Shown here piece after piece: positions 2,634-47,500 of a stretch of DNA of 64,000 nucleotides. Each line of letters starts with the position of its first letter. Positions within the stretch are counted from its first letter, which is position 1. The DNA lies in contig JAPLLS010000093.1 in the NCBI GenBank assembly GCA_026387435.1, positions 1,059-65,058 on the forward strand, in the 5' to 3' direction. Both the position numbers and the translations under genes were made by a program. Under the pieces are notes generated by a model, which was given only the letters and a program-made list of their open reading frames with translations, did not search any database and was not told the origin of the DNA. The DNA is from Candidatus Omnitrophota bacterium (GTDB lineage: Bacteria > Omnitrophota > Gorgyraeia > Gygaellales > Profunditerraquicolaceae).

Positions 2634-5477
2634 ATGAAAACCACCTGTTTTAGATCCTCATGGCCTGGATTCTGGGCGGGGATATTATTTTCACTATCAA
2701 TTGTTTTTTTTACTAAATGCTCGTTTGCTTCTGAATTGCCCCGCTACGATATCGCGGCATCCCTGGATGCTCAAAATCACAGCCTAAAAGCCAAAGAGAA
2801 GGTAGTTTTTACCAACAACTCCGATGTTCCGGTCAACGAAATATTTTTCCATATTTATCCCCACCGCCAATATACCAAAAAAGAGATAAAATTCATGTAT
2901 CAATATTCCGGGTATATTAAGGTTAATCTTTTTCCGGAAGGATTCCAAAGCGGCGATTTGAAGATCAATTCCGCTCAAAGCGCCGGCAAGCCCCTTACCT
3001 ATATAATAGAGGGCGATGATCAAACGATTTTGAAGGTTAAGCTGGATTCCGGATTGAACCCCGGGGAGTCCCGGGAGATCGAGATCGATTTTAGCCTGGA
3101 TATTCCCCATTGCTGGAACAGATTGGGATACCATCGGGATATTATTACCTTGACCCGCTGGTATCCTATTTTAAGCGTTCTGGATAAATCCGGGTGGCAT
3201 AATTATCCGTTTTACATCTATCATCAGCCGTTCTTTAGCGATGCCGCATACTATAAGCTGGAACTGACTTTACCCAAGGAGCAAAAATTAGCCTGCGGGG
3301 CTTATTTAAAAACCGAAACTTTAAATCCCGACAACACCAAAACTTTAGTTTTGGAAAATGAAGCGCCGATGCGCGATCTGGGTTTGGCTATTTCTGCGAA
3401 CTTCCAGGTTTTTTCTTTAAACCAGGACAATTTCCGGATCAATGTTTTTTATCCCCAAGGCGAGCTTAAATTTGCCCGGGAAGCTGCCAATAACGCTGCC
3501 GCGGCGATGAAATTTTACGGCCAGCGTTTTGGAGCCTATCCTTATAAAGAATTCACTATAGCCCCCAGCTACCTGGGGTTCGGCGGAGATCAGTCTTCCG
3601 GGATGATCTTTATCGATGTCCGGATGTTCCGGCTGCCAAGGTTTCTTTGCCGCTATTCTGATTTCATGATCGCCCATGAAACCGGACATCAATGGTTCTA
3701 TAACATCGTCGGCTCGGACGAATACAAAGAGATGTTTCTTGACGAAGGAGTGAATTCGTATTGGCTCCTGCGCCACCTGGAGGATAAGTACGGTTATAAC
3801 GCTCAGGTGATGGGCTTACCTAAAAGCTTGGTCTGGCTGGTTCCGAACTTTTCTTTCCGGGATTCCACCGCCAGCCGTTACATCTACCTGGCCAAGAACG
3901 GCTACGACCGGCCGGTGATCGGCGAGCTTTCCAGTTTCAAAGAACCTTCTTCGATCTTTGCCCTGGCTTATGGAAAAGGTTCTGCGTTCTTAAGCATGTT
4001 GGAAGCCCAGGTCGGCAAAGATGTCTTTGATCGGATCATGATCCATTACGCCCGGGAGTTTCGTTTCAAAAACGCCAGCCTTGACGATTTTATCCGGATT
4101 TGCCGGGAAGAATCCCGGCAAAAGCTGGATGAGTTCTTCCGCCAGTGGCTTAAGACCTCCCGGAGCTGCGATTTCGCGGTTAAATCCGTGCAGCCGGGCA
4201 AAGTTATCCTTGAAAACCGGGGCGACCTTCAAATGCCGGTAAAGACCCAAGTGGTCTTGAATGACGGGACCGAAGTCATCGATCAGTGGACGGGAGAAGA
4301 TAAATTCCGCGAGATAGCTATTCCTAAAGATAAAACAACAAAAGAAGTAAATATTGATCCGGATAAAATCATTGATTTGGACCTTGACCGCACCAATAAC
4401 CATTGGCCCAAAAAATTCAGGTTTAAACCGGTGTCGATATATTTTTTCCCCTGGGAGCTTTCAATTTTTCAAGATAGGGACGCTTACAATGCAGCGGCCG
4501 GGCCTTCTTTAGGCGGCTCTTCAATAGGCGCGGCCGCTTCAGCTCAAAAACCGTACGACCAGGTTATCCGGGCAAGTTCGGCCTATGATTTTAGCGGCAA
4601 GGCAGTGGACTCTAAACTGGGATATGAACTCGACCATATTTTGGGCCGGCATAACAGCCTGGGTTTTGAGATTTTTGATTACGATTCCAGCAAAGATGGT
4701 TTTGACGTTGCCGGAGGTAAGCTTTACTGGCGCAAGGAGCTTTGGCCGGCAGCTTACGGTATTTTCGATGTCAATGACCATGTAACTTTTTATCTAGTTA
4801 AAGACCGTAAATTAGACTCGACTGCGACTTTAAACGGCCAGGAATCCATAACCAACCTTAAGTACGCCAAAAAAGACGAGTCTATATTGGGGATAACCGG
4901 CTCGATGAACAGGTGCGGTCCTTCTTTTGACCCGGATTACGGCTGGAAATTCCTGCCTACGCAGGAATTTTCAGGACATTTTTTAGGCGGCAATCAGTCT
5001 TTTTGGCGGTCAAGCGCCGAGTTGGAAAATTATTATTTGGCCCTTCCCCGTTACCAGCAGAAGCTGGCCAGCCGGATCAAGGTTGGCCTGGGCGGACAAT
5101 TCGACAAGAATCTTTTCCAAATAGGCGGATGGGAAGGTTTGCGCGGCTACGATTTTAAGAGTATCGACGGATCGCGGATGATCCTGGGGAGCCTGGAATA
5201 CCGTTTTCCGGTCCTCGGTGACCTTAAATTTTATTTCCTGGATAATATTTTTTGTTTGAACAAGATCCAGGGCGTGGTTTTTTTTGACGCTGGCAAAGCC
5301 TGGTATTCTGATTTCTCGGCCAGGAATTTCAAGAAAGACGTCGGGTTGGGGCTGAGGATACATCTGGGCGCAGTAGGAATTCTGGAAAAAGCGGTTTTAC
5401 GCCTGGATGTTGCCCGGGCCATCAACGAGCCCAAAGAGGATCCGCATATCTGGGCGGGGATAAACCAGTCTTTTTAA
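2634..5477 (+). CDS. M1-family zinc metallopeptidase domain fused to a C-terminal Omp85/BamA-type (bacterial surface antigen) beta-barrel.
   Basis: An N-terminal signal peptide is present. The motif HETGHQWFYNIVGSDEYKEMFLDEG is HExxH-x18-E. The C-terminus GLRGYDFKS...LGSLEYRFPV...GLGLRIHLG...AGINQSF ends in an aromatic residue, as Omp85 barrels do. Confidence 0.65.
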   Translation: MKTTCFRSSWPGFWAGILFSLSIVFFTKCSFASELPRYDIAASLDAQNHSLKAKEKVVFTNNSDVPVNEIFFHIYPHRQYTKKEIKFMYQYSGYIKVNLFPEGFQSGDLKINSAQSAGKPLTYIIEGDDQTILKVKLDSGLNPGESREIEIDFSLDIPHCWNRLGYHRDIITLTRWYPILSVLDKSGWHNYPFYIYHQPFFSDAAYYKLELTLPKEQKLACGAYLKTETLNPDNTKTLVLENEAPMRDLGLAISANFQVFSLNQDNFRINVFYPQGELKFAREAANNAAAAMKFYGQRFGAYPYKEFTIAPSYLGFGGDQSSGMIFIDVRMFRLPRFLCRYSDFMIAHETGHQWFYNIVGSDEYKEMFLDEGVNSYWLLRHLEDKYGYNAQVMGLPKSLVWLVPNFSFRDSTASRYIYLAKNGYDRPVIGELSSFKEPSSIFALAYGKGSAFLSMLEAQVGKDVFDRIMIHYAREFRFKNASLDDFIRICREESRQKLDEFFRQWLKTSRSCDFAVKSVQPGKVILENRGDLQMPVKTQVVLNDGTEVIDQWTGEDKFREIAIPKDKTTKEVNIDPDKIIDLDLDRTNNHWPKKFRFKPVSIYFFPWELSIFQDRDAYNAAAGPSLGGSSIGAAASAQKPYDQVIRASSAYDFSGKAVDSKLGYELDHILGRHNSLGFEIFDYDSSKDGFDVAGGKLYWRKELWPAAYGIFDVNDHVTFYLVKDRKLDSTATLNGQESITNLKYAKKDESILGITGSMNRCGPSFDPDYGWKFLPTQEFSGHFLGGNQSFWRSSAELENYYLALPRYQQKLASRIKVGLGGQFDKNLFQIGGWEGLRGYDFKSIDGSRMILGSLEYRFPVLGDLKFYFLDNIFCLNKIQGVVFFDAGKAWYSDFSARNFKKDVGLGLRIHLGAVGILEKAVLRLDVARAINEPKEDPHIWAGINQSF

Positions 5478-5568
5478 CAAGACCTCACAGGGATTTGTGA
5501 TTGCCGGAGATTAAAAGCCGGGTATTGTGTTGACAGGGAAAGTGTTTTGTGCCAGAATAATTCCCGCG

Positions 5569-6696
5569 ATGATAAACAAAAGACGTTTAATAAAATTAAC
5601 TCAAGACCTGATCCGGATCGATTCCCAGAATCCGAATGGTAATGAGTATGAGATCGCTCGTTGGGTTAAAACCTACTTGGGTAGAATCGGAATTCCGGCC
5701 CGGTTATATGAGTTCAGGCCGAAACGGACCAATGTTGTGGCCACAATGGCCGGACAAGACAAAACTAAATCCTTGTTGATTACCCCTCATTTGGATACTG
5801 TGCCGGCCGGATCGGCCTGGAAATTCGATCCTTTTGCGGGGAAGATCAAAGGCGCAAAAATGTACGGGCTGGGCGCCACTGATTGTAAGGGTAATCTTGC
5901 TTGTGCCCTGGAAGTCATCAACAGTTTGGTCGAAGAAAAAATAAAACTGGGGTATGATCTGGTTTTCGCAGCTACTGCCAATGAGGAATCCGGCTCGGAA
6001 TTCGGGCTGATCGCTCTTCTGGATAAAGGGATACTCAAGCCCACGGCGGCAATGGTCCTGGACGCGGACGATTTCGAGGTTGTGGTCACTCAAAAGGGCT
6101 TGATCCATCTTAAAATAATAATCAGGGGGATCAAGGCTCACGGAGCCTATCCCTGGCTGGGGGTAAATGCTATCGACATCGCTCTGAAGGTCCTGGCCGA
6201 GTTAAAGTGCATGAAATCACGCTTTAGTCCAAATAAGTTCCTTAAGCCGCCGACCATGAACATCGGCACTATTAGGGGAGGGGACAAAGTCAACGTCGTT
6301 GCGGATCGCTGCGAGTTTGAACTGGATTTCCGCTACCTGCCCGGCATGTCCGCCGATACTTTATTGAAAGCTATCAGAAAGATCACGGCCAAGCACGCGA
6401 AAAAATTTGCGATAGAAATTGACGGGGTCCAGAAACCTTATGATATTTGCCCGGACCATCCGATGGTTCTTGGTTTACAGAACGCCGGGAAAAAATTCAA
6501 AGTAACTTGCCCGGTTCGGGGTTCTGAGGGGGCAACGGTTATTACTTTCTTCCAGGATAAATCAATTCCGGCGATCGCCACCGGTTTCGGCTCCGAAGGA
6601 ATGGCGCACATGGCCGATGAATACGTATTGGTCGACAACCTTTATAAAGGCAGCCTTGTTCTGGAAGAGTTTCTGAAAAATTACAAATTTTCTTAG
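5569..6696 (+). CDS. M20-family peptidase (ArgE/DapE-like deacylase).
   Basis: HLDTVPAG...WKFDPF, GLGATDCKGNLA and the EESGSEFG metal-binding motifs. The start is chosen at MINKRRL. The ORF track begins earlier at GTG 5527, inside a TTGACA-containing promoter-like sequence. Confidence 0.7.
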   Translation: MINKRRLIKLTQDLIRIDSQNPNGNEYEIARWVKTYLGRIGIPARLYEFRPKRTNVVATMAGQDKTKSLLITPHLDTVPAGSAWKFDPFAGKIKGAKMYGLGATDCKGNLACALEVINSLVEEKIKLGYDLVFAATANEESGSEFGLIALLDKGILKPTAAMVLDADDFEVVVTQKGLIHLKIIIRGIKAHGAYPWLGVNAIDIALKVLAELKCMKSRFSPNKFLKPPTMNIGTIRGGDKVNVVADRCEFELDFRYLPGMSADTLLKAIRKITAKHAKKFAIEIDGVQKPYDICPDHPMVLGLQNAGKKFKVTCPVRGSEGATVITFFQDKSIPAIATGFGSEGMAHMADEYVLVDNLYKGSLVLEEFLKNYKFS

Positions 6697-9266: not shown

Positions 9267-10268
9267 GTGAAAAAAATGATGAAAATCGGACTGACTTACG
9301 ATTTAAAAACTGATTACTCGCCTAAAAAAGACGATCCGCCGGATGCTAACGCCGAATTCGACCATCCGGACACGATCAAGTACATTGCCGATGCTTTTGA
9401 GTCCCAGGGTTTTTCGGTGAAAAAAATCGGCAATGTGTCCAGCCTTTTGGAAAACCTCGACAAATTAAACGTAGATATAGTTTTTAATATATCTGAAGGG
9501 CTTATCGGCAGAAACCGGGAATCCCAGGTGCCCATACTTCTGGAGATGGCCGGTGTGCCTTTTGTGGGCGCTGACGCTTTAAGCCTGGGGATATCGTTGG
9601 ACAAGATCATGGCCAAGAAGATCTTTATGGCCGAAGGGATACCTACTCCAAGGTTCGTGGAGGTTAAGTCTGTCGACGGCCTGGATCATCTCGATCATCT
9701 GAAATTCCCTCTTTTTGTCAAGCCTCGCTTTGAAGGATCTTCCAAGGGGTTGACCGAGACTTCCCGGGTAGAGAACAAAGCTGAGCTTAAGACCCAGGTC
9801 GAGCATATACTTTCTGTTTACAAGCAGCCGGCATTGATCGAGGAGTTTATCCGCGGCGAAGAGTTCACTGTAGCTGTCATCGGAAATGACCCGCCGGAAG
9901 CTTTGCCGATCGTACAGATAAAGATAGACGGAGAGCTTAACCTTAAAGACAAGTTTTATACATTCGGCCATATCAAGGACGACAAACTGGAATACGTTTG
10001 TCCGGCACCGATAAGCGAAAGCCTCAGGAAAAAACTTATTGACTTGGCTCTGAAGACTTTTAAAGCCATCGAATGCCAGGATTTCGGCAGGGTGGATTTC
10101 CGGGTCGATGAAAAAGGCAGCCCCTATGTTTTGGAGATTAATCCTCTGCCGTCTTTGTCAACGGAAGACGTCTACAGCGTGATCTCTAAGGTGCTGGGGA
10201 TTACTTACGAGAAGATGCTCGGCAAGATCCTTAACGCCGCGCTCAAGAGGAACAATTTAATAAAATGA
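9267..10268 (+). CDS. D-alanine--D-alanine ligase-family ATP-grasp enzyme (paralog 1).
   Basis: MKIGLTYDLK...DTIKYIADAFESQGF, a central ATP-grasp region and C-terminal LEINPLPSL. The size is typical of Ddl at 333 aa. Confidence 0.7.
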   Translation: MKKMMKIGLTYDLKTDYSPKKDDPPDANAEFDHPDTIKYIADAFESQGFSVKKIGNVSSLLENLDKLNVDIVFNISEGLIGRNRESQVPILLEMAGVPFVGADALSLGISLDKIMAKKIFMAEGIPTPRFVEVKSVDGLDHLDHLKFPLFVKPRFEGSSKGLTETSRVENKAELKTQVEHILSVYKQPALIEEFIRGEEFTVAVIGNDPPEALPIVQIKIDGELNLKDKFYTFGHIKDDKLEYVCPAPISESLRKKLIDLALKTFKAIECQDFGRVDFRVDEKGSPYVLEINPLPSLSTEDVYSVISKVLGITYEKMLGKILNAALKRNNLIK

Positions 10269-11272
10269 AAGTAGCCCTGGCGTACAATTTAAAGAAAGAA
10301 GATAATACTAAGCCCGAGGATTATGCTTCGGAATTCGACTCGGAAGAAACCATCGGTGCTATAGCCGGCGCTTTGCGTTCCCGCGGCCATAATGTCGAGT
10401 ATGTAGAGGCCAGCCAGCCGAATCTTTTGGAAGCTTTTAAGAAAAGCCGCGCGGATATGGTTTTTAATATCGCCGAAGGCGAAAAGGGAAAGTACCGCGA
10501 ATCGGAAATCCCGGCGATCCTTGATTTCCTGGGCATTCCTTATACCGGCTCGGGGACGTTATCGCTGGCGGTAGCTTTGAACAAGGCCTTGACCAAGAAG
10601 ATTTTGAAAGCCGATAACATTCCCACCCCGGCTTTTCAGCTTTTTACGACCGGAAAAGAAGTATTGGATCCCCAATTAAAATTTCCTCTGATCATTAAAC
10701 CGAATTTTGAAGGCTCGGCCAAGGGGATCAACCGTTCCAATGTAGTGGAAAACCAGAAAGATCTTTACCTTAAGGCCAGGGAGCTTATTGATGTATATCA
10801 GCAGGAGGCTCTAGTTGAGGAGTTTATCGAAGGCAAAGAGCTTACCGTCGGGATCTTGGAAAACGGGACTTGCAACGTACTGCCGATTTTAGAGATTGAT
10901 TTTGAATCTGCCAAGAAGTCCGGGGAATTTTTCTATTCCTGGAGGATGAAAGAGTTCCAGGGGGACGATGTGCAGGGGCTGACTCCGACATTTCATTGTC
11001 CGGCCCGCCTGGATAGCCAGACGGAGAAGCTGGTCAAGGATACCGCCGTAAAAACTCACCGGGCGGTCGGCTGTTACGGTATTTCGCGCACCGACATCCG
11101 GTTAAGTAAAAACAATATCCCTTATGTTCTGGAGATCAATCCTTTGCCCGGGCTTAATCCCAAGGAATCTAATTTCCCGATCATGGCTTATGCTGCGGGG
11201 ATGAAATATGATGATATAATCGAGGCGATCCTTACCAGCGCCTATCAAAAAAGAAAGGCGGAAAATGGCTAA
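10265..11272 (+). CDS. D-alanine--D-alanine ligase-family ATP-grasp enzyme (paralog 2).
   Basis: It has the same architecture as the upstream gene, with MKVALAYNLKKED... and C-terminal LEINPLPGL. Its start overlaps the preceding stop by 4 nt. Confidence 0.7.
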   Translation: MKVALAYNLKKEDNTKPEDYASEFDSEETIGAIAGALRSRGHNVEYVEASQPNLLEAFKKSRADMVFNIAEGEKGKYRESEIPAILDFLGIPYTGSGTLSLAVALNKALTKKILKADNIPTPAFQLFTTGKEVLDPQLKFPLIIKPNFEGSAKGINRSNVVENQKDLYLKARELIDVYQQEALVEEFIEGKELTVGILENGTCNVLPILEIDFESAKKSGEFFYSWRMKEFQGDDVQGLTPTFHCPARLDSQTEKLVKDTAVKTHRAVGCYGISRTDIRLSKNNIPYVLEINPLPGLNPKESNFPIMAYAAGMKYDDIIEAILTSAYQKRKAENG

Positions 11273-12449
11273 TACGGCGGTAACCGAAAATCAAAAGTTA
11301 CTCTCCGAAGCTGTTATTGCGCCGCGGCCGGCTAGAAAGTCCCGCGATTACCAGCAGATCAGTCTTTATAAAGAAGTTAACCCGCTGGACTGGGAAGACT
11401 GGCGCTGGCAGATGAGAAATCGGATCACTAAGCTCGATCAGATATCTCAAGTTGTTAATTTGACCAAGGAAGAAGAAGAGGGTATTAAAAACGCCAAGGG
11501 GCATATGGCCATGGCCGTCACCCCTTACTGGGCGACTTTACTGGATCCGGAAGACCCCGCCTGTCCGATCCGGCGGCAATGTATTCCTACGCAAAACGAA
11601 TCCAATATCAGCCCCTATGAGATGGCTGACCCTTGCGGGGAGGACAGCGATTCTCCGGCGCCGCATTTGGTGCACAGGTATCCCGACCGGGTTTTGCTTT
11701 TGGCTACCGAGTCCTGCGCTATGTATTGCCGCCATTGCACCAGAAGGCGGCTGGTCGGCCACGCGGAAAAAGTGGATAATTCCCCGGACCGCTGTGATGC
11801 GGCCATTGATTACATCCGCTCTAACAAAAAGATCCGTGATGTTCTTATTTCCGGCGGTGACCCGCTTACGCTGGAAGACGAAGTGCTGGAAGATCTGTTG
11901 AAGAAATTACGCACTATCCCTCATTTGGAATTCCTGCGTTTAGGCACCAGGGTGCCGGTGACCCTTCCTCAGCGGATCACCGAAAGCCTGGTTTCCATGC
12001 TTAAAAAATACTCCCCGCTTTGGATGAGCATCCATTTCAACCATCCCAAGGAGATAACCCGGCGCACCAAGATTGCCTGCGAAATGCTCGCCGACTCCGG
12101 GATTCCGCTGGGCAGCCAGACCGTACTCTTGAAAGGCATTAATGACCGGCCCAGCACCATGCGCAGGCTCATGCATGACCTTTTGAAGATCAGGGTCAGG
12201 CCTTATTACATTTACCAATGCGACTTAGTCCGGGGAACGCAGCATTTCCGCACTCCGGTCGAAGCCGGAATAAATATAATCGAAAAATTGCGCGGCCATA
12301 CCACCGGCTACGGGGTGCCGACCTATGTCATTGACGCTCCCGGCGGAGGCGGCAAGATCCCGATTAATCCTAATTACGTAGTTTCCCAGGGCAAAGGCAA
12401 ATACGTTTTGCGCAACTACGAAGGAAAGGTTTACACTTACCTGGAGTAA
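11265..12449 (+). CDS. kamA: KamA-family radical SAM enzyme (lysine 2,3-aminomutase type).
   Basis: CAMYCRHCTRR is the CxxxCxxC radical SAM cluster motif. LISGGDPL and a C-terminal Cys-rich tail are typical of KamA/EpmB. Confidence 0.75.
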   Translation: MANTAVTENQKLLSEAVIAPRPARKSRDYQQISLYKEVNPLDWEDWRWQMRNRITKLDQISQVVNLTKEEEEGIKNAKGHMAMAVTPYWATLLDPEDPACPIRRQCIPTQNESNISPYEMADPCGEDSDSPAPHLVHRYPDRVLLLATESCAMYCRHCTRRRLVGHAEKVDNSPDRCDAAIDYIRSNKKIRDVLISGGDPLTLEDEVLEDLLKKLRTIPHLEFLRLGTRVPVTLPQRITESLVSMLKKYSPLWMSIHFNHPKEITRRTKIACEMLADSGIPLGSQTVLLKGINDRPSTMRRLMHDLLKIRVRPYYIYQCDLVRGTQHFRTPVEAGINIIEKLRGHTTGYGVPTYVIDAPGGGGKIPINPNYVVSQGKGKYVLRNYEGKVYTYLE

Positions 12450-26922: not shown

Positions 26923-27381
26923 ATGACTCCTATACCTATAACCGAATTCGCCGATAAGCTTAGTAAGTTGATGCCGGAGATCGCCAGGGGCACTCTCCGG
27001 CGCGAGGCGTTTGAATTGTCCAGCGGGCACATAACTTTGCCGCAATTCGTTATCTTAAATATGCTGGATAGAGAAGAGGAGCTTCGGATGACGGATATTG
27101 CCCGCGCTCTGGGAGTGACTACCGCGGCGGCCACGGGCATTGTCGACAGGCTGGTGAAATCTTCCTACGCGCAACGCGTTTATGACGCCAATGACAGAAG
27201 GATAATCAAGATCCGGCTCAGCCTTAAAGGCCGGGATCTGGTTCAGAGGGTCAATAAACATAAAAAGCAGAATATAATCGAGATATTCGGCAAGATCCCT
27301 TCCGAAGACCGTGACAGTTTTCTTAAAATACTGATGAAGGTTCACGAGATCGTGACCCAGGACAAGGAACCAGCTAAATAA
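26923..27381 (+). CDS. MarR-family transcriptional regulator.
   Basis: A winged-helix region (ITLPQFVILNML...LTDIARALGVTTAAATGIVDRLV) and 152 aa. Confidence 0.8.
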   Translation: MTPIPITEFADKLSKLMPEIARGTLRREAFELSSGHITLPQFVILNMLDREEELRMTDIARALGVTTAAATGIVDRLVKSSYAQRVYDANDRRIIKIRLSLKGRDLVQRVNKHKKQNIIEIFGKIPSEDRDSFLKILMKVHEIVTQDKEPAK

Positions 27382-28649
27382 TGAAGAAAATCATTATTTT
27401 TTCAATCGCGGTTTTTTTTATTCTATTTTCTGTTCTCGCTTTAAGGGCGGAAGAGATCTCTTTGTCTTTAGATGAGGTGGTGAGTATCGCTCTTCGGGAT
27501 AATCCGGATGTCCGGCTCAAGGTTGAAGATGTTAAGAAGGCCAAGGCTAAGATCAACGAGGCCAGGTCAGCGCTGTTTCCTTCTTTAAACCTCGGCGCAG
27601 GATGGAGTGATACTCGGGGATTATATTCCAAAGACGTGAGCGGATTTTCCGGCCAGGCCGGAGTAAGCCAGGTTATTTATGCGGGCGGTCGAGTGATTAA
27701 CACCATCAAAGCCGGAGAGGATAATTATCTGGCAACCCAAGCGGTGCTGGATAAAGCCAAACTCGATACGGTGGCTAGCGTCAAACAAGCCTATTATACC
27801 ATTTTACTGGCGGAGAAACTGGCAGGAATCAATAAGGCGATAGTCGAGAATACCAGGGAGCACCAGGAATTTATCCAGGCGCGCTATTTGGCGGGCCAGG
27901 TTTCCGAATCTGAATCGATCAAGATGCGTTCGGCTCTGGCCGGTGTAGTCCAGGCGTATGAAGCGGCATTGAACCAACTTGAATCATCCCGGGCGTTACT
28001 GAATAATCTGCTCTTCTTGGATAACCAGATACAGATCGATCTATCGGGCGATTTTAGTTACTCGCCTTTAGAGGTTGTTTACGATGAGGCTTTTTTGAAA
28101 GCTTTACGATCTCGTCCGGAGATCCGCCAATTGGAAGCCCAGAAAAATGCCGCGGGAAAGAATGTCGAGATCGCCAAGTCCGGGAACCGGCCGCAGGTGG
28201 CCGCTGCCTGGGATTATTACAGCAATTCTCGCCAGCCCAGTACCGCCGCCCGCAATCAGAATGATTACAATGTCCTGGGGGTCAGCGTCAGCTGGCCGGT
28301 CTTCGACGGAAGATTGACCCGTTCCAAGGTGGAGCAGGCGATCATTGATCTAAAAGAAATGCAGTTATTGAAAGAAAAGGCGGTCAGGGACATCGTCCTG
28401 GAATTAAAGACCGCTTACCTGGCGCTTAAAGACGCCATCGAGAAAACCAGATCTGTTGCCGAGGAAGTCGCGGTTTACAAAGATAACCTTTCGGTCATCG
28501 AAGAAAAACATAAATCAGGAATAGTTAGCGGCCTTGACCTGCACGACGCCCAATTAAGCTGCAGCGTGGCTTTATTCGGCCAGGCTCAGGCGGATTACGA
28601 CTATCTCATAGCTAAAGCGCGGTTCGAAAGGGCCGTAGGAGGAAAATAA
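27381..28649 (+). CDS. TolC-family outer membrane efflux protein.
   Basis: A signal peptide and two repeated OEP domains (e.g. ...LPSLNLGAGWS...), 422 aa. It is immediately followed by the adaptor and the RND pump. Confidence 0.8.
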   Translation: MKKIIIFSIAVFFILFSVLALRAEEISLSLDEVVSIALRDNPDVRLKVEDVKKAKAKINEARSALFPSLNLGAGWSDTRGLYSKDVSGFSGQAGVSQVIYAGGRVINTIKAGEDNYLATQAVLDKAKLDTVASVKQAYYTILLAEKLAGINKAIVENTREHQEFIQARYLAGQVSESESIKMRSALAGVVQAYEAALNQLESSRALLNNLLFLDNQIQIDLSGDFSYSPLEVVYDEAFLKALRSRPEIRQLEAQKNAAGKNVEIAKSGNRPQVAAAWDYYSNSRQPSTAARNQNDYNVLGVSVSWPVFDGRLTRSKVEQAIIDLKEMQLLKEKAVRDIVLELKTAYLALKDAIEKTRSVAEEVAVYKDNLSVIEEKHKSGIVSGLDLHDAQLSCSVALFGQAQADYDYLIAKARFERAVGGK

Positions 28650-29548
28650 TGAATGATCTTAAAGGGTTTCTGCGCATAATCACGGCACTTGTGTTTCTTC
28701 TGGCAGCCTTTGGCTGCCAGAAAAAAGAGATCATTGCCATCAAGGATTCTGCCAGCGAAGCGATCCCGGTCAAGGTAGTCACGGTTAAATCCGGGACTAT
28801 GCAGGAATTCATCGATTATGTGGCTAATGTCAAGGCCCAGGAAGAGACCCAGGTTTTTCCCAAGGTAACCGGAAAGATCGTTGAAAAAGTTAAACAGGAA
28901 GGTGACCCGGTGGTCAAAGGGGAAACTATCGCTTTGGTCGACCGCGACGAAACCGGCTTGAAATTCGCACAAGCCGCGGTGGAGAGCCCGCTCTCCGGAG
29001 TGGTGGCTAGGGTGCTGGTGGATATCGGAGCCAACGTTTCGCCGCAGACCCCGGTGGCCCTGGTCGTGGACATGGAAAAAGTAAAAGTCTTTCTGGATGT
29101 TCCGGAGAAATACCTGCCGAGCATATCCGTAGGGATGAGCGCCACCGTCGGTGTTGAGGCTTACCCGGATGAGACATTTACCGGGACTATCGTACGTATC
29201 AGTCCGATCGTGGACATCGCGACCCGCACCTGCCCGGTGGAGATCGCTATAGATAATAAAGAACATAAATTGCGTTCCGGGATGTACGCCAAGGTTAAGG
29301 TGGTTACCAGGGAATATAAAGACGCTATAGTATTGCTCAAAGAAGCGGTATTGGGCCGGGAACCGCAGCAATATGTTTACGTGATCAAGGATCAGAAGGC
29401 CAAATTGCGCGAGGTCAAGACCGGGGTGCGCCAGGGGCCATATCTGCAGATTGTTGAAGGCCTGACGTTGGGGGATAAAGTGGTGGTCATGGGCCAGCAG
29501 CGCCTGCGTGAAGGCGCCGCGGTATTAGTCGAGGAGAACGGCGAATAG
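28649..29548 (+). CDS. RND efflux periplasmic adaptor subunit (membrane fusion protein).
   Basis: A lipobox-like N-terminus (LAAFGC), a biotinyl/lipoyl-like hairpin and a beta-barrel region. It sits between tolC and the RND permease. Confidence 0.8.
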   Translation: MNDLKGFLRIITALVFLLAAFGCQKKEIIAIKDSASEAIPVKVVTVKSGTMQEFIDYVANVKAQEETQVFPKVTGKIVEKVKQEGDPVVKGETIALVDRDETGLKFAQAAVESPLSGVVARVLVDIGANVSPQTPVALVVDMEKVKVFLDVPEKYLPSISVGMSATVGVEAYPDETFTGTIVRISPIVDIATRTCPVEIAIDNKEHKLRSGMYAKVKVVTREYKDAIVLLKEAVLGREPQQYVYVIKDQKAKLREVKTGVRQGPYLQIVEGLTLGDKVVVMGQQRLREGAAVLVEENGE

Positions 29549-29566
29549 CCGGGGAGGAATCATAAA

Positions 29567-32500
29567 ATGAGTCTTGCGGAATTCGGCGTTAGGAAGCCGG
29601 TAACTAACCTGATGATATTTTTAGCGCTGATCATTGTGTCTCTTTACGCTATGACCCGGCTCGGTGTGGATATGATGCCTACGATCGAGTCCCCGGCCAT
29701 ATCGGTGATCACTTCTTATCCCGGCGCCAGCCCCGAGGATGTGGAGATCAAGGTTACCGAGCCGCTGGAGAACCAATTGGCGATCACTCCGGGTTTAGAT
29801 AAGATCACTTCCACTTCATCGGAGGGGATGTCCGCGGTCACCCTGCTTTTTAAGTGGGGGATTAATGTGGACGCGGCCTCTAATGACGTCCGTGACCGGA
29901 TCGACCAGGCTAAACCATCCCTTCCGGATATTCCCGATGAGATTTCTACTCCTTTCTTATGGAAATTCAATACCGCGAACATGCCGATCTTAGTTTATGG
30001 ATTTAAGGCCGGACGCAGCTATCCTGAGCTCTATGATCTTATCGACCGGCGTATTTGTGATCCTTTAAAGCAGCTTGCCGGAGTTGGCACCGTGCAGTTA
30101 AACGGCGGGTTGGAACGCCAGATCAATGTCTGGCTGGACCGCCAGAAGCTGGAAGGTTATGGTTTTGCCACCTCAGATATACTGCTTGCTTTAGAGAGAG
30201 AGAACGTTACCCTGCCCGTAGGTAACCTTAAAACCGGCTTAACCGATTATCTACTGCGTTTGCCCGGAGAATTCGCCACTCCCGAAGAGATTAACTCGGT
30301 GATCCTGGGTACCCGCAGCGGAAAAGTGGTATATTTGCGCGACGTGGCCCGGATCGAGGACGCTTTCAAAGAGATCTCTACGCTCGTGCGCATTGACCGT
30401 AAACGCGGCTTGACTATGATGGTCCAGAAACAGACCGGTACCAATACTGTTGAAGTAGCCGCCAGGGTGCAAAAGAGATTTCAGGAATTGATGAAGACTT
30501 TACCGTCCGATATTCAGGCGGAAATAGTTTTTGATACCTCCGAAGACATTATTTTAGCTTTAAAATCGCTGAGTAATTCCCTGTGGCTGGCGATCTTACT
30601 GGTAATTTTGGTGGTCTGGTTCTTCCTGCGGCAATTCCTGCCGAGCTTAGTCATCGCTCTGACAATTCCGTTCTCTTTATTGATCACGTTTTTGTATCTT
30701 TTCTTAAGCGGTAGGACCATTAATGTCGTCAGTCTTTCTTCCATCGCCATTGCTTCCGGGATGGTGGTGGACAACGCCATAGTTGTCGTGGATAATATCT
30801 TCCGTTATCTTTCCCGCGGCCAGCGCGCGACCGAAGCTTCTATATTTGGCACCTCAGAAATGTTCTTATCCATCGCCGCGTCTACGCTTACCACTATCGT
30901 AGTATTTCTTCCGATGTTTTTTATTACCGGCGTGGTGGGGGTGATGTTCTCGGAATTAGCGGCGATCATTAGCGCGACCCTCTTGGCGTCGTTGTTTACC
31001 GCCGCGACTTTCAGCCCCATGCTTTGTTCGAAATGGCTTAAGCCGGTAACGGCTTCTTCCACCGACAAGAAAAAGGGGATATTTAGCGGGATTTATAACG
31101 CTATCGAGAAGATCATCGTCGGCTGGGAAAGTATTTATGAAAAGTCTCTGGGTTGGTGCTTAGGCCATAAAAAGCTGGTGCTAATTGCTTTTACCGGAGT
31201 TTTCTTTTTCACTCTGATGCTTACCAGGTTCGTTGGAAATGAATTCATCCCCCAGGAAGATACCGGTGACCTGCAGGTTTCGATCAGGCTTCCGGTAGGG
31301 ACCCGGATGGAAGAATCGGATAAGGTGGCCAAGAAGATCGAGGACATTTTTGACTCGGTAAAAGAAAAGAAATTCAGCTACGTGCGCAGCGGCCAGGTCC
31401 AGGGTATCGGCCGGGTGACCGGCCAGGCCTCGGGATCGCATGTGATTTATTCCGGGCTAAGGTTGGTGCCTAAGACCGAGCGTAAAAGATCGGATAAGGC
31501 AGTTGGTCAGAATATCCGTGAACAGGTGCGTAAAATTCCTGGCGTCGAAAAAGTTGATGTTTCCACCGGAAGTATGGTTAACCGTTTGATACTCGGAGGT
31601 AGCGGAAAGTCTATTCAAATTGAGATTATCGGAAATTCTTTTGAGGATACGAATATGCTCGCGGAAAAGATCAAGAAGATAGTCGAGTCGGTTCCCGGAG
31701 CGGTGGACGCGGCGATCTCCCGCGACGCCAGCCGTCCGGAGATCCGTATTGCGGTGGATCGGGAGCGCGCGGCCAGCCTCGGTTTGAACATGGAGGCGGT
31801 AGCCAGGAGCATCAAGACTTTCATTGAAGGAAGCAGCGCCTCCAAGTACCGGGAAAAAGGCCGGACCTATGATATTTACGTGCGGCTGCAAGAATCTTCC
31901 CGGACCCGGCTGGAAGATGTGGAGAACCTGACCCTGGTTTCTCCGCTGACCGGCAAACAAATCAAGCTCTCCAGTTTTGCCAAGATCTACGAGACCACCG
32001 GACCGCTTTCGATCGAGCGCAAGAATCGCGAGAGGGTGGTTAAGGTGGAAGCCAATACTCTTAACCGCTCCAGCGGTAAGATCGTCGAGGATATCAAAAA
32101 GGAAATGGCCAAGCTGGCCATTCCTTCGGATATGATCATCAATTTCGGCGGAGAAGCGGAAGAACAGGGGAAGGCTTTTGCTGACATGGCTATGTTGTTG
32201 TCTTTAGGCGTAGTCCTGGTGTATATGGTTATCGCCGCGCAGTTCGAGTCGCTCCTGGATCCTTTTATCATCATGTTTTCCATTCCTTTCACTTTTACCG
32301 GAGTGATCTGGGCATTAGCTGCGACCGGGATGACCCTCAACGTTATGTCGTTCTTAGGCACGGTCATGCTCATGGGGATCGTGGTGAACAACGCTATCGT
32401 GCTGATAAGCTATATCAATATCCTGCGGGCTAGGGGAAATTCGCTCTATGACGCGGTAACTAAAGGCGGAAAAGACCGCTTGCGCCCGGTACTCATGACT

Positions 32501-32716
32501 ACGATCACCACCCTAGTCGGCTTGTTGCCGCTGGCCATTTCCCGGGGCGAAGGTTCGGAACAATGGCAGCCGATCGGCATCTGTATGGTGGGAGGACTTA
32601 CCGTATCCACTTTTATTACTATGCTTTTTGTGCCGACATTATACTCGGTATTTCACCGTAAATCAGCCGGTCAGGTAAAAGTGAGGAAATGCGATATTCC
32701 CGCGGAGGTTAAATAA
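29567..32716 (+). CDS. RND efflux transporter permease (AcrB/CzcA family).
   Basis: 1049 aa with 12 predicted transmembrane segments, two large periplasmic loops and the conserved GMVVDNAIVVVDN motif. Confidence 0.9.
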   Translation: MSLAEFGVRKPVTNLMIFLALIIVSLYAMTRLGVDMMPTIESPAISVITSYPGASPEDVEIKVTEPLENQLAITPGLDKITSTSSEGMSAVTLLFKWGINVDAASNDVRDRIDQAKPSLPDIPDEISTPFLWKFNTANMPILVYGFKAGRSYPELYDLIDRRICDPLKQLAGVGTVQLNGGLERQINVWLDRQKLEGYGFATSDILLALERENVTLPVGNLKTGLTDYLLRLPGEFATPEEINSVILGTRSGKVVYLRDVARIEDAFKEISTLVRIDRKRGLTMMVQKQTGTNTVEVAARVQKRFQELMKTLPSDIQAEIVFDTSEDIILALKSLSNSLWLAILLVILVVWFFLRQFLPSLVIALTIPFSLLITFLYLFLSGRTINVVSLSSIAIASGMVVDNAIVVVDNIFRYLSRGQRATEASIFGTSEMFLSIAASTLTTIVVFLPMFFITGVVGVMFSELAAIISATLLASLFTAATFSPMLCSKWLKPVTASSTDKKKGIFSGIYNAIEKIIVGWESIYEKSLGWCLGHKKLVLIAFTGVFFFTLMLTRFVGNEFIPQEDTGDLQVSIRLPVGTRMEESDKVAKKIEDIFDSVKEKKFSYVRSGQVQGIGRVTGQASGSHVIYSGLRLVPKTERKRSDKAVGQNIREQVRKIPGVEKVDVSTGSMVNRLILGGSGKSIQIEIIGNSFEDTNMLAEKIKKIVESVPGAVDAAISRDASRPEIRIAVDRERAASLGLNMEAVARSIKTFIEGSSASKYREKGRTYDIYVRLQESSRTRLEDVENLTLVSPLTGKQIKLSSFAKIYETTGPLSIERKNRERVVKVEANTLNRSSGKIVEDIKKEMAKLAIPSDMIINFGGEAEEQGKAFADMAMLLSLGVVLVYMVIAAQFESLLDPFIIMFSIPFTFTGVIWALAATGMTLNVMSFLGTVMLMGIVVNNAIVLISYINILRARGNSLYDAVTKGGKDRLRPVLMTTITTLVGLLPLAISRGEGSEQWQPIGICMVGGLTVSTFITMLFVPTLYSVFHRKSAGQVKVRKCDIPAEVK

Positions 32717-43375: not shown

Positions 43376-43551
43376 TTGTATCCATCCTTGGGGCGGGTAA
43401 GAAGAAACCGCTTTCAAATTCCGCCCTTGCCCGTCTTGAAAACTACTCTATATATTATATACTTATTATATAAGGTTGAGAGACTCTAGTGCCTTCCAGC
43501 TGGTTACTGGGAGGTCTCTTTTTCTCCACAAAACAAAAAGTTTGTAAAAGT

Positions 43552-44580
43552 ATGATCAATCGGATTTTAGCATTTCTAATTTCGTTTTGTCTTATCTTCG
43601 AGCAGACCGGGTTTGCCCAGCTGGCTATTCCTATAGGCATACCCGGATATTTGAGTTTGCTGGCTCCGGTCGCCGATAAATTCCGGCCGATCCATCTGCG
43701 TTCCATTGATCTTAGCTCCGGTAATGGTAATTTCGAACTCATCCTGGACAAAGGCGACCTCAAGGATATCCAGCCCCGCCAGCTGGAAGAAACGACCAAA
43801 GAACTCTACCGATATTTCCAAATAGGTTTAGCTTTACCGAACAAGTATTTCTGGGTCAACCTCAGGCCGGATTCCCCTGATAGCATGATCGAGCCTTTGC
43901 TGGCCAAGACCGATCTGGGCAAGGTGATGCTAGAAGCCGATCTGCAGCTGAAAAAAGACCTGGCCAATTTTACATCTCTCCAGACTCCGGAAGGCAAACT
44001 TTACTGGGACAAACTTTACTCTAAAGCCAGCGAGCTTTACAACCAGCAGGATATCCAAATTCCCACCTTGACCCGTCCCTGGATCGTTCCCGGAGAAGTG
44101 GTGATTCGCTCTAGCCAAACCGGGGCTTTTGTTTACAAGGCTACGCTTAAGGTAATGCTGGAGCAGGACTATATCAAAGATTCCCCGGCGTATAATTTTA
44201 ACGACCCCCGGCTAAAAGAACTCAATGGTTATTCCTCTCAGCTTATCCGCGAACTGATCATTCCCAAGCTGACCCGGGAAGTCAATTCTTCCCGGCGCTA
44301 CTCGCAATTGCGCCAGGTTTATTATTCGTTGATCCTGGCCCAGTGGTTTAAGTCGAAATCTTTTGGAGTGGCTATGGTCGAAGGTCGGGTGGCGATGGCA
44401 CAAAAGACCGATAGCCAGGACTTGAGCGGGTTGACTTCCAAAACCAGCTGGTCAAAAGACACTTATTTCCAGGCCTACAAGAAGTCGTTCCAGAAAGGCG
44501 AATACAACCAGCAGGAGCAGGTGAATTCGCTCAATGGAATATCGATCCGGCAATACACCAGCGGCGGGATCCAGATAATG
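43552..44580 (+). repeat. About 1.03 kb direct repeat (copy 1): the shared 5' module of the two giant genes.
   Basis: About 88% nucleotide identity to 58476-59504. One example of several long identical runs: cggtcgggtggcgatggcacaaaagaccgatagccaggacttgagcgggttgacttccaaaaccagctggtcaaaagacacttatt occurs in both copies. Confidence 0.85.
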
Positions 44581-47500
44581 GATCAACTGAAGATCCAGGA
44601 GATCCCGGGCAGTGTCGCTGACTTCTTCACGGGTAACCAGGAATACTTTGCCAGGTTGTCGATGAATTCCCTGACCGGTGATGTGAATATCTTACCGGCA
44701 AGTCCTGTTTTAAAATCCGGCGGAGCACAGGAGTTTGACGGCGGGAAAAAGATAAGTCAGGAATCGGAGAAGGCAAAAGACGCAAAGCGAGGTAATGATC
44801 AGGCTTTTTCCTCGGTGCGCGAAAAGTTCATGTTGTTGACCGAGGCCGAAAAGGAGGAGCTTAATCGCAGGCTTAGAGAGCTGCACCAGGATTCACTCAG
44901 TCAGACGAGTCTCAATAAAGAAGAAAGCGATCGGGAATTCTATACCATCACTATCCGCGAGCAAAGGAGATTCATCGCGGTGTTCCTGGATAAATTCTGC
45001 GCGGAGATCGATCTGGAAGTCGCGTTAAGAAAGGAAGAAGCTGCTGTCCGCACTCTCGGTTATTTATTCTCGAAGATCGCGGGGTTGTTCGCCAAATATC
45101 TATCAAAGAAGAAGGAAATAGGAAAGAACAGGCTGGAAGCGGTCAAGCGCCGGGAGATTTTCGACCGGGCCTGGCAGGAAGCAAGCCGGATCTATCTGGA
45201 CATGTTCCCGCAGCCGGAGAAAAGAACTTGGAACGCGCCTGCCAATGTGCCGGCTATCTACGCCGAGGCATACGACAAATTGCAGAGTTGTCTGACAACA
45301 GACATCCCGGCTTTATTCCTTTATTCGCTTGAGTCGCGGGACAGCCTGGACAGGGCGTTTGAGCTTTATCAACGGAATAATCCTCAGGTCATTGTTGAGC
45401 GGGTCATTTGTACGCCGGACAGCGACCGCATGCAGTTGATCGGCGCGGACATGCCGGTTAGCGCGCAGGATCGGGAATTCTCCAAAGAAAAGATACGTTT
45501 CCAGAAAGGCGTATTATACCGGTTGGTAGACCAGGCCAAGGCGGATCCTTCCAAGATTTTCGTGCTTCGATTAGAGCAGGTCGAGGCTTTGTCGGCCAAG
45601 GTCTGGGTGCAGTTGAACCAGTTCTTGCTTACGGGAGAGTTGTGGATACCCGAAACCAACGAAAAACTTATTCTTCCCGACAACCTTAAGATCGTAGCTT
45701 CCCTTTCCAGCGGCCTAAGGGACAGCGCCTTTTACGACCGCTTCCTGCGTAAGCAGTTGAATATCCCGGACAGGAAAAGCCTGGTTGATTACGCTGTGAC
45801 CAGGTTCGGACTGCCTCAGGTGTTGATAGAGGAATATTGTAATCTGCAGGCGGATAACAGCGACAAGATCACCATGGGGCAGCTTTTAGTGCTGTTTTCA
45901 TATATGAAGGGGCGGCTGGCTGATGAAAATATCAGCGCGAATTCCCAACGCGGCAGGGCGATCATCACTGAAGAACGGGATCTGTTTTTCAGATCGATGG
46001 CCAGGGGCAAGGAGAATATTTTGCTGGCAATGGGCAAAAAAGAGGAAGAACCCGGCGGAGGAAACGATCCGGATACGGAAATGCTTAATGAAGTATTGGA
46101 ATTCTCGACGGAGAACCGATTGCAAATTACAGCTGATTTCACTCCTGAAGAGATAGGGGAGATTGTACTCAAATATCCCGCTGACTGGAAGAATAAACTG
46201 AAAGAGTTGAAGCTTATAAAAGAAGAAGAACGGGATCTGTTTTTCCTGGCCCGTCGGAGCAATGAGGGTCCTCTAAAAGGAATTAATCCGGACGACGAAA
46301 CAGCAATGATGGTCCTGGAGTACGGCGGCAAGATTGGCGAAGTTTATTCCCGGATGGGAGAACTTCGCACTTATGCTGGTCTGCACAAGATAGACCTTTC
46401 ACTTGAAGAAGCCCGTGTGATCGCGATATTAGCTCCTGACCAGATAGAGGGGATTCTGAAAGGCCGGGAGGATGTTAGTGAGGTTTTGATGCTGGTTGAG
46501 ATGCGTATGGCGTTCCAGTCCGTAATAACCATTGTCCCGGGAGTAAAGAACGTTTTGGTGTTCGAGCCCAAAACCGGCCGGTTCATGGCGGATGGAGTGG
46601 AATTGCCTATTCGCTCTGAACTCAAGGACAAGATCGCCGAGGCGATGAAAACACGGGATATGGAGCAGGCGATCAGGGAAGTGTTCAAGGCTGAGCTGGG
46701 TTTGACTTTGACCCAGGACGTAGCGCGCACGCTGAGCGCTATTTCCCGTAATTACCGCTACGGCACCCGGGTCCTGCGGCTGGAAGGCCCGACCGGGACC
46801 GGCAAGACGTTCATGGCCCAGGCTTTGGCCAAGATGCTGGACATTCCTTTTTACGGAGAGCCGTTCCACGCCGCCAGCAAACAGTCGAAACTTCTGGGAG
46901 CGCTCAAGCCCGATGAGAAAGCGGATTATTACATGGATTCGGACACGCCGTTTCTGCAAATACTGGAAAAGGGCGGGGTTGTCGCGCTTTCCGAGCTTAA
47001 TGCGGCGGTAAAAGATGATAAAGCCCGCTTCGGCTGGCTGATGGTGCCTTTGGCTCGGGGTGACGAAAAGTTCATCCTTAACCAGTATCCTGACGGTAAA
47101 GAAACGACGCGGGAACTGACCCGCCATCCGGATTCAATGGTGATCATCGATATCAACCCCACGGAATCATACGAGGCCCGCGGCCAACTTCCGGGTCCGC
47201 TTAATGAAGTTACTCCCGCGGTCTGGGTGGAAGGCAGGTTCGAGTCTCAAGAACTCGAGGATATTTCCGGCGATTATCTCGCCGGCCTCGCGCAGGAAGA
47301 TCTTGACTATTACCGCGGAAAGATCGCCGGCCTGCATTTCGCGATACAACAGGAGCTGGCGGATGAGGATGGCCCGTGGCGGCAGGAGGAAAAAGAGAAG
47401 CGCGAGAAATTCGGAGGCGTAGATATTACCCAGATGCTTAAGGCAGGGCGTATGTCGCCGATGAAGGCAATGAAGGTCTTCGGTCCAATGTTCGGGGTTA

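Follow-up and report, generated by a model that had tools for sequence, protein, structure and literature searches.

We analysed a stretch of 64,000 nucleotides (nt) from a Candidatus Omnitrophota bacterium (contig JAPLLS010000093.1), hereafter the window, and focus on one gene, at nt 2634-5477, which encodes an M1-family zinc peptidase fused to a C-terminal Omp85-type beta barrel. The protein is an undescribed Omp85 subfamily in which the POTRA module is wholly replaced by the peptidase and the capping domain of the peptidase is replaced by the barrel. The explanation we lean towards is an outer-membrane-anchored, periplasm-facing zinc peptidase with atypical recognition of substrate N termini. 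Coordinates are those of the window, and features lie on the forward (+) strand unless stated otherwise.

The gene is complete, stop codon included, and encodes 947 amino acids (aa); in the six-frame list of open reading frames (ORFs), it begins and ends exactly where an earlier reading of the bare DNA (the sequence-only reading) had placed it. That reading had proposed a peptidase covalently attached to a POTRA-less barrel and had named a profile search and a structure prediction as checks, and both bear the proposal out. Pfam Peptidase_M1 (PF01433) matches residues 285-505 (E 8.9e-23, 81.5 bits against a gathering score of 27.7), and Omp85 (PF01103) matches residues 710-936 (E 9.2e-18, 65.3 bits against 24). 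The sequence-only reading had named a C-terminus without a PF01103 match and a missing signal peptide as findings that would refute it, and neither applies. An AlphaFold2 model (md6f8591d5726), built from a 101-sequence alignment, has a mean predicted local distance difference test score (pLDDT) of 90.9 and a predicted template modelling score (pTM) of 0.88 over the whole chain. It places an all-beta N-terminal M1 domain I at aa 37-273 (nt 2742-3452), the helical, thermolysin-like catalytic domain II at aa 278-506 (nt 3465-4151), and domain III, a six-stranded beta sandwich, at aa 514-574 (nt 4173-4355). A conserved junction (aa 575-617; nt 4356-4484) leads into a 16-stranded Omp85-type barrel (aa 618-947, strands 618-943; nt 4485-5474), which corresponds to the C-terminal 330 or so residues that had been read as a barrel from the sequence alone.

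In a Foldseek comparison with the PDB, about 580 columns spanning M1 domains I-III were aligned to ERAP1, IRAP, ERAP2, and APN (E about 1e-25). There is no helical domain IV; the barrel starts where that domain would in four-domain M1 enzymes. No POTRA domain was matched by Pfam at E <= 0.1 anywhere in the 947-aa protein, and none is seen in the secondary structure, as residues 514-617 are modelled as the six-stranded sandwich and a short junction, not as beta-alpha-alpha-beta-beta. NCBIfam gave sub-threshold matches only, to PepN, LTA4 hydrolase, an Omp85 subfamily, BamA, and TamA, and the fusion is therefore an orthologue of none of PepN, LTA4 hydrolase, BamA, and TamA. Scores were 37.2 against a cut-off of 297.15 for BamA (TIGR03303), 18 against 625 for TamA (NF047950), 25.2 against 1050 for the Deinococcus-type BamA, and 42.7 against 200 for the Omp85_fam subfamily.

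The fusion is genuine, as both domains occur in all 120 listed homologues and a relative is present in 268 species genomes. A homologue search of 5.8 billion proteins returned 270 matches, 120 of them listed; all 120 are 899-1003 aa long, have the two Pfam domains, and align with 95% or more of the query, with identities ranging from 89% to 46%. They stem from independent JGI, ENA, NCBI, and Logan assemblies, and those with a name belong to Candidatus Omnitrophota (Omnitrophica), annotated either as "M1 family aminopeptidase" or as "BamA/TamA family outer membrane protein". The 268 genomes come from a scan of one genome per GTDB species, and the best 80 of them are almost all metagenome-assembled genomes labelled Omnitrophota or "uncultured Planctomycetales". 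We exclude an artefact of assembly or frameshift, since hundreds of independent assemblies encode the full-length architecture at near-constant length. The M1-Omp85 protein would represent a core, vertically inherited component of Omnitrophota.

The zincin site recognized in the sequence-only reading as HExxH-x18-E is HETGH-x18-E at aa 348-371 (nt 3675-3746), and its H348, E349, H352, and E371 are invariant in the 101 aligned sequences, which have diverged to 46% identity. YGKG (aa 446-449; nt 3969-3980), containing the transition-state-stabilising Tyr446, aligns to SYSKG of aminopeptidase A, and Y446 and K448 are likewise invariant. The invariance of the zinc ligands, E349, and Y446 indicates that the M1 module is under selection for activity. 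At the position of the GXMEN motif the protein has GGDQS (aa 317-321; nt 3582-3596), with Gln320 in place of Glu; HMMER sets this motif on GAMEN of aminopeptidase A (4kx7), and hhalign sets it on GAMEY of a distant relative, P0163. Among the 120 close homologues, residue 320 is Gln in 109, with Glu in 8 and Asn in 3. In LTA4 hydrolase, replacement of Glu271, the equivalent of the GXMEN Glu and regarded as the N-terminal recognition site, abolished both activities (PMC3405069). Given this result and the Gln at the GXMEN position, classical aminopeptidase activity is doubtful in the source clade. Membership of the M1 family is supported by the HExxH-x18-E motif, a score above the profile threshold, a thermolysin-like fold after an N-terminal beta domain, and the catalytic Tyr; the protein departs from M1 aminopeptidases in the replaced GXMEN Glu and in having junction and barrel in place of the helical capping domain IV.

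The C-terminal domain carries the hallmarks of Omp85 proteins. Loop L6 (aa 821-847, 27 residues; nt 5094-5174) contains GLRGY (aa 835-839; nt 5136-5150), the Omp85 (V/I)RG(F/Y) motif, and sits between strands 11 and 12 in the model, as in BamA. Its partner motif in strand 13, (F/G)xDxG, is present as FFDAG (aa 883-887; nt 5280-5294). G838 and F883 are invariant, and L836, R837, D885, and G887 are conserved in at least 90% of the 101 sequences, as is the terminal Phe947 (the protein ends in NQSF); GLRGY and this terminal aromatic residue had both been named in the sequence-only reading. Extracellular loops are short (L1 2, L2 4, L3 6, L5 9, L7 9, and L8 8 residues) except for L4 (26) and L6. 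The periplasmic turn T3 (ELWPAxYG...ND) is the best-conserved connection between strands (conservation 0.80), and the lengths of strands, turns, and loops vary by a few residues at most across the alignment.

As a single sequence, the barrel gave only chance matches in the PDB, and a profile of 35 sequences was needed to place it. This junction-plus-barrel profile matched Fusobacterium BamA (7.6e-10) and TamA (8e-6) and no TpsB protein in the PDB; the protein also lacks what defines TpsB transporters (FhaC/CdiB), a TpsB-type barrel with a pair of POTRA domains and a plug helix at the N-terminus. The barrel is nearer to BamA, TamA, and Sam50 than to porins. Its place in the Omp85 superfamily is supported by the profile, the 16 strands, and the L6 and strand-13 motifs, with POTRA as the missing feature.

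The junction between peptidase and barrel opens with the motif DPDxxIxLDxDRTNNxWP (aa 575-592; nt 4356-4409), in which D575, P576, D583, D585, R586, N588, N589, and W591 are invariant in a 21-sequence alignment. It is modelled at high confidence (pLDDT around 89-95) with only two 4-residue helices and one short strand. The core motif, D-x-[DNE]-R-x-[ND]-N, was found in 107 of the 120 Omnitrophota family members and, among distant long relatives, in 47 of 147; of 45 barrel-less relatives of 560-680 aa, only one has it, and that one looks truncated. The motif is thus common to barrel-bearing M1 proteins of deeply diverged clades and essentially missing from barrel-less relatives. Its role may be docking, plugging, or metal binding.

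More distant relatives were collected by an exhaustive phmmer search of 1.84 billion cluster representatives, which gave 1217 matches at E <= 1e-30; the best 150 of these include full-length ones down to 26-30% identity. Both the Pfam M1 and the Omp85 domain were confirmed in the distant relatives P0135, P0141, P0155, and P0182, and many relatives of about 900 aa show PF01433 only. Among the relatives is the P0163 clade (~880-920 aa), with named members from Acetothermia/Bipolaricaulota, Zixibacteria, KSB1, and WOR-3. An AlphaFold2 model for this clade (pLDDT 89.4, pTM 0.87) has a leader, M1 domains I-III, and 16 C-terminal strands, and the barrel profile of the clade matches that of the Omnitrophota family with 97% probability (E 5e-11). 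This Omp85-like barrel is missed by PF01103, and the proteins are annotated only as M1 metallopeptidases. With two barrel hidden Markov models (HMMs), a barrel was matched in 55 of 72 representatives of at least 850 aa, and the fusion occurs in at least 55 distinct clusters at 50% identity. The barrels in PF01103-negative clades and the shared junction motif indicate that M1-barrel fusions form a broad, under-annotated group, of which the Omnitrophota family is one well-conserved branch. The sequence-only reading had called the architecture uncommon, which holds in that it is missing from a 2014 survey of Omp85 proteins (see below) and fails in that it is standard in Omnitrophota and spread over these clusters.

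The protein is predicted to be exported by the Sec system. A signal peptide at aa 1-32 (nt 2634-2729) has K2 and R7, a hydrophobic core, and small residues at -3/-1 (S-F-A), with predicted cleavage after CSFA and ahead of mature SELPRY; in the model, the leader has low pLDDT and a helix at 12-25. By simple heuristic scoring, the same three features are present in 86-88 of 91 scorable homologues, so that the signal peptide on which the sequence-only reading depended is there as a predicted pattern. Anchoring as a lipoprotein was rejected, as only 3 of the 91 leaders have a lipobox. The heuristically identified cleavable leader and a predicted C-terminal aromatic beta-signal both agree with an outer membrane location.

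Since the barrel has a BamA-like register, with L6 between strands 11 and 12 and FxDxG in strand 13, strand 1 would enter from the periplasm, and since the peptidase precedes strand 1, the module would lie in the periplasm, provided that the junction does not run back through the lumen. The N-terminal domains of Omp85 proteins are described as periplasmic (PMC11358297). PlpD, long cited as an Omp85 protein that secretes its own enzyme domain, has been shown by experiment to hold this domain "exclusively in the periplasm" (PMC11116518). The register in the model and the analogy to PlpD lead us to place the peptidase module in the periplasm, which we consider probable, and the surface-displayed enzyme of the sequence-only reading is not supported by either. 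The pTM of the whole chain and the pLDDT of the junction indicate one fixed arrangement of the two modules in the model instead of a flexibly tethered passenger. The alignment with full-length TamA covers 346 residues and that with barrel-only TamA covers 256, which suggests, indirectly, that part of the non-barrel chain overlays the POTRA side. The strong conservation of T3, a turn on the periplasmic side, also speaks for the periplasmic placement.

We therefore picture the favored mechanism in the following way. After Sec export and cleavage of the leader, the barrel would be inserted into the outer membrane, and the ~580-aa peptidase module would stay in the periplasm, rigidly docked beneath the barrel. 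Working there on the inner side of the outer membrane, it may cleave unfolded polypeptides or peptides; candidate roles are the turnover of envelope proteins, quality control, and the trimming of peptides that have reached the periplasm. Classical aminopeptidase activity would be improbable, and substrates lacking a free, charged N-terminus may be accepted.

Several points weigh against this picture. More distant barrel-bearing sister clades keep the Glu at the GXMEN position (GGNE[ST], LGNEF, NGNEC), and the Gln may be a lineage-specific quirk instead of a defining property. Periplasmic turns are better conserved than extracellular loops as a trend only (0.64 vs 0.56, p = 0.066). Gene neighbors vary, are mostly housekeeping genes, and give no functional clue, and the choice of a specific role, such as quality control or nutrition, is a guess.

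Among characterized proteins, the fusion seems to work most like PlpD, in that an enzyme would be held at the periplasmic face by an Omp85 barrel. PlpD, of the patatin-like "type Vd" group, also joins an N-terminal hydrolase to a C-terminal 16-stranded barrel of the Omp85-proper type and is exported by Sec; its enzyme domain is most likely periplasmic, and its barrel is probably a scaffold (PMC11116518). The fusion is not a member of the PlpD family, however, as PlpD has a patatin lipase and one POTRA between enzyme and barrel, whereas the fusion has an M1 peptidase, no POTRA, and instead domain III and a family-specific junction. It thus has neither the patatin nor the POTRA of type Vd proteins.

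No description of an M1-Omp85 fusion was found in the literature, nor anything on Omnitrophota BamA. The 2014 survey of the Omp85/TpsB superfamily by Heinz and Lithgow lists ten subfamilies with no M1 fusion among them (PMC4104836). One of the ten, the uncharacterized "Metallo" subfamily, resembles the fusion in having an N-terminal metal-dependent hydrolase, and the same hypotheses, periplasmic quality control or a translocated effector, were raised for it (PMC4104836); its PF00149 domain is unrelated to PF01433 in fold and chemistry. As late as 2024, Omp85 subfamilies with N-terminal metalloprotease, WD40-like, and patatin-like domains were called uncharacterized (PMC11116518). POTRA-less barrels of uncharacterized function are also found among the noNterm Omp85 proteins, such as the Leptospira paralogues (PMC11358297), which have essentially no N-terminal extension, in contrast to the 580-aa enzyme of the fusion. 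Compared with BamA, TamA, and Sam50, the fusion has no POTRA, scores far below the BamA and TamA model cut-offs, and has much shorter extracellular loops. It differs from four-domain M1 aminopeptidases (ERAP1, IRAP, APN, PepN, and tricorn factor F3) in having a barrel for domain IV and GGDQS for GXMEN, and in being embedded in the membrane by a beta barrel, whereas those enzymes are soluble or anchored by a single-pass helix.

Some likelihood, a minor one, attaches to a coupling of translocation and proteolysis, in which the barrel keeps the channel or lateral-gate activity of Omp85 proteins and its periplasmic mouth closes the catalytic chamber, feeding polypeptides to the zinc site. Substrates would be peptides on their way in, or proteins that require clipping during export or assembly, e.g., the giant proteins typical of these genomes. 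The attachment of the barrel exactly at the start of domain IV of four-domain M1 enzymes speaks for this, as do the fixed peptidase-barrel geometry implied by the high pTM, the specificity of the DxDRxNN junction motif for barrel-bearing relatives across deeply diverged clades, and the nearness of the barrel to BamA, TamA, and Sam50; the L6 lock and a conserved Gly942 near the C-terminus also resemble functional Omp85 proteins. However, the two-domain M1 enzyme 6a8z has no cap, so a substitute for domain IV is not required, and PlpD shows that Omp85 barrels can be scaffolds without translocation. There is also no conserved neighboring substrate gene. In its furthest-reaching form, which we consider quite unlikely, the barrel would be a functional replacement of domain IV whose mouth closes the chamber together with the DxDRxNN junction, making the protein a single-chain outer-membrane "translocase-peptidase" that cleaves passing polypeptides. 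It may then stand in for POTRA-dependent substrate handling or process giant exported Omnitrophota proteins.

Omnitrophota are thought to include host-dependent nanobacteria that could use surface hydrolases, which counts in favor of surface display, and AaaA of Pseudomonas aeruginosa shows what a surface-tethered peptidase can look like. In AaaA, a type Va autotransporter, an M28-type passenger is tethered to the surface by a 12-stranded barrel; in barrel family and topology logic, it is unrelated to the fusion. As a peptidase covalently attached to an outer-membrane barrel, AaaA is nevertheless the closest known case to the display proposal and an example of an enzyme-barrel fusion that displays an aminopeptidase (PMC3426542). 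For the fusion, the proposal is that the barrel would export the M1 module through the outer membrane in the manner of a type Vd autotransporter, and that the exposed peptidase would digest external proteins for nutrition or act on host or prey cells. Heinz and Lithgow deemed translocation possible for enzyme-Omp85 fusions (PMC4104836), and with short extracellular loops other than L4 and L6, the mouth of the barrel may be less domed than that of BamA. Against this, strand 1 begins on the periplasmic side, and the protein has the intact L6 lock motifs of closed Omp85 barrels. It also lacks a POTRA and any linker or helix long enough to span the lumen, and the ~580-aa module of three domains would need to cross unfolded. 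We therefore regard surface display as unlikely.

The genomic context was assessed at the loci of relatives. In the window, a PilZ-domain gene (968-2626) is followed after 7 nt by the fusion gene and, 49 nt further on, by an M20 peptidase gene (5527-6696), then by a PAC2-family gene, a HAD hydrolase, and an AbpE-like gene. Within 7 kb of the fusion gene at 82 loci, an HhH-GPD glycosylase was a neighbor in 50, a 388-aa family (probable aminotransferase) in 42, the PilZ protein in 37, a TPR-DUF3857-transglutaminase-like protein in 28, and the M20 peptidase in 23. At the 64 loci with at least 4 kb upstream, the immediate upstream gene was HhH-GPD (n = 21), a TPR-like family of ~130 aa (n = 16), PilZ (n = 10), or M48 (n = 9). 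The context is drifting synteny of mostly housekeeping genes, with no operon with a fixed partner, and gene context was rejected as a basis for function for this reason. No second Omp85 gene was found within the window or at 84 loci of relatives.

This variability also makes it very unlikely that the fusion belongs to an envelope module controlled by cyclic di-GMP, formed with the PilZ-TM-coiled-coil-GH76-like protein (TM, transmembrane) and the TPR-DUF3857-transglutaminase-like lipoprotein and loosely similar to TamA/TamB or LapD/LapG. In the window and in close relatives, the three genes lie next to one another or overlap, with the 7-nt gap in the window and a 4-nt overlap at the related locus L005. 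The PilZ gene is upstream even in a relative whose fusion is only 46% identical, and it is present in 31 of the 64 loci with enough upstream sequence. Yet it is missing from about half of the loci, the immediate upstream gene varies, and genes are tightly packed and co-directional anyway in these genomes. In addition, the C-terminal domain of the PilZ partner looks carbohydrate-related (PF03663 in some members), and the copy in the window has no transmembrane segment.

A catalytically dead M1 fold that only binds peptides or proteins at the outer membrane is scarcely credible, as a pseudoenzyme would not be expected to keep every zinc ligand, the general base Glu349, and Tyr446 unchanged across the 101 diverged sequences.

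Omp85 proteins are universal machines for building and crossing the outer membrane, and knowledge of them comes nearly entirely from POTRA-bearing members. The M1-Omp85 family is a natural experiment on what an Omp85 barrel alone is capable of, and a periplasmic peptidase would extend the PlpD result, with the Omp85 scaffold put to new use for enzymes on the inner side of the outer membrane. Omnitrophota is a phylum without a cultured model, and its envelope is poorly understood. The barrel-bearing relatives in other candidate phyla are unannotated as barrels, which means that outer-membrane proteomes are under-called there. The database name "M1 family aminopeptidase" probably misstates the location of the protein and, in the source clade, its activity.

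The PilZ gene at 968-2626 encodes a PilZ/coiled-coil protein with a C-terminal GH76-like domain of ~370 aa, for which PF03663 is called in some homologues. With 552 aa, the protein lacks about 96 aa in frame compared with every orthologue (634-671 aa). The missing part comprises the second half of the PilZ domain and a single hydrophobic, transmembrane-like segment, so that NIGKGGI jumps to VNGYLNIKL; the gap is a genuine deletion variant or else arose in assembly. Further upstream, at 63-971, the window start cuts a gene of which the C-terminal part remains, encoding a TPR-DUF3857-transglutaminase-core-DUF3858 protein of ~797 aa. Its orthologue at L005 has a lipobox-like leader (LFSGC) and is the gene that overlaps PilZ there. 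This gene co-occurs with the M1-Omp85 gene in 27 of the 64 loci.

Within the barrel-coding region (WKFLPTQEF), a hairpin with a 14-bp stem and a T-rich tail at 4943-4974 resembles a terminator. It is probably a chance occurrence, since such sites in the region are at shuffle expectation; the scan for promoters and terminators gave counts near that expectation overall. Two tandem ATP-grasp genes of the D-Ala-D-Ala-ligase-like type and a lysine-2,3-aminomutase-like radical SAM gene (LAM_C in an orthologue) are located at 9267-12449. This trio is kept downstream in related loci such as L001 and may belong to a beta-lysine-related pathway. In a distant Omnitrophota relative (loci L003 and L004, 16419-20927 on the reverse strand), two adjacent Hint/intein-like proteins and a 796-aa protein without a Pfam match are encoded on the strand opposite to the fusion gene, a few kb downstream of it.

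An AcrB-type RND pump (861 bits) at 27381-32716, with two ORFs (422 and 299 aa) ahead of it, fits a diderm envelope. A giant ORF at 43489-58470 encodes 4993 aa, with a dynein-related AAA_5 match (72.9 bits) near residue 1100, weaker AAA matches near residues 2135 and 3684, and a sub-threshold Methyltransf_23 match (23.8 bits against a gathering score of 27) near the C-terminus. Nearly every long gene-like ORF from 1 to 64000 is on the forward strand, and the cumulative GC skew rises monotonically over the 64 kb, which is consistent with one replichore with strong gene co-orientation.

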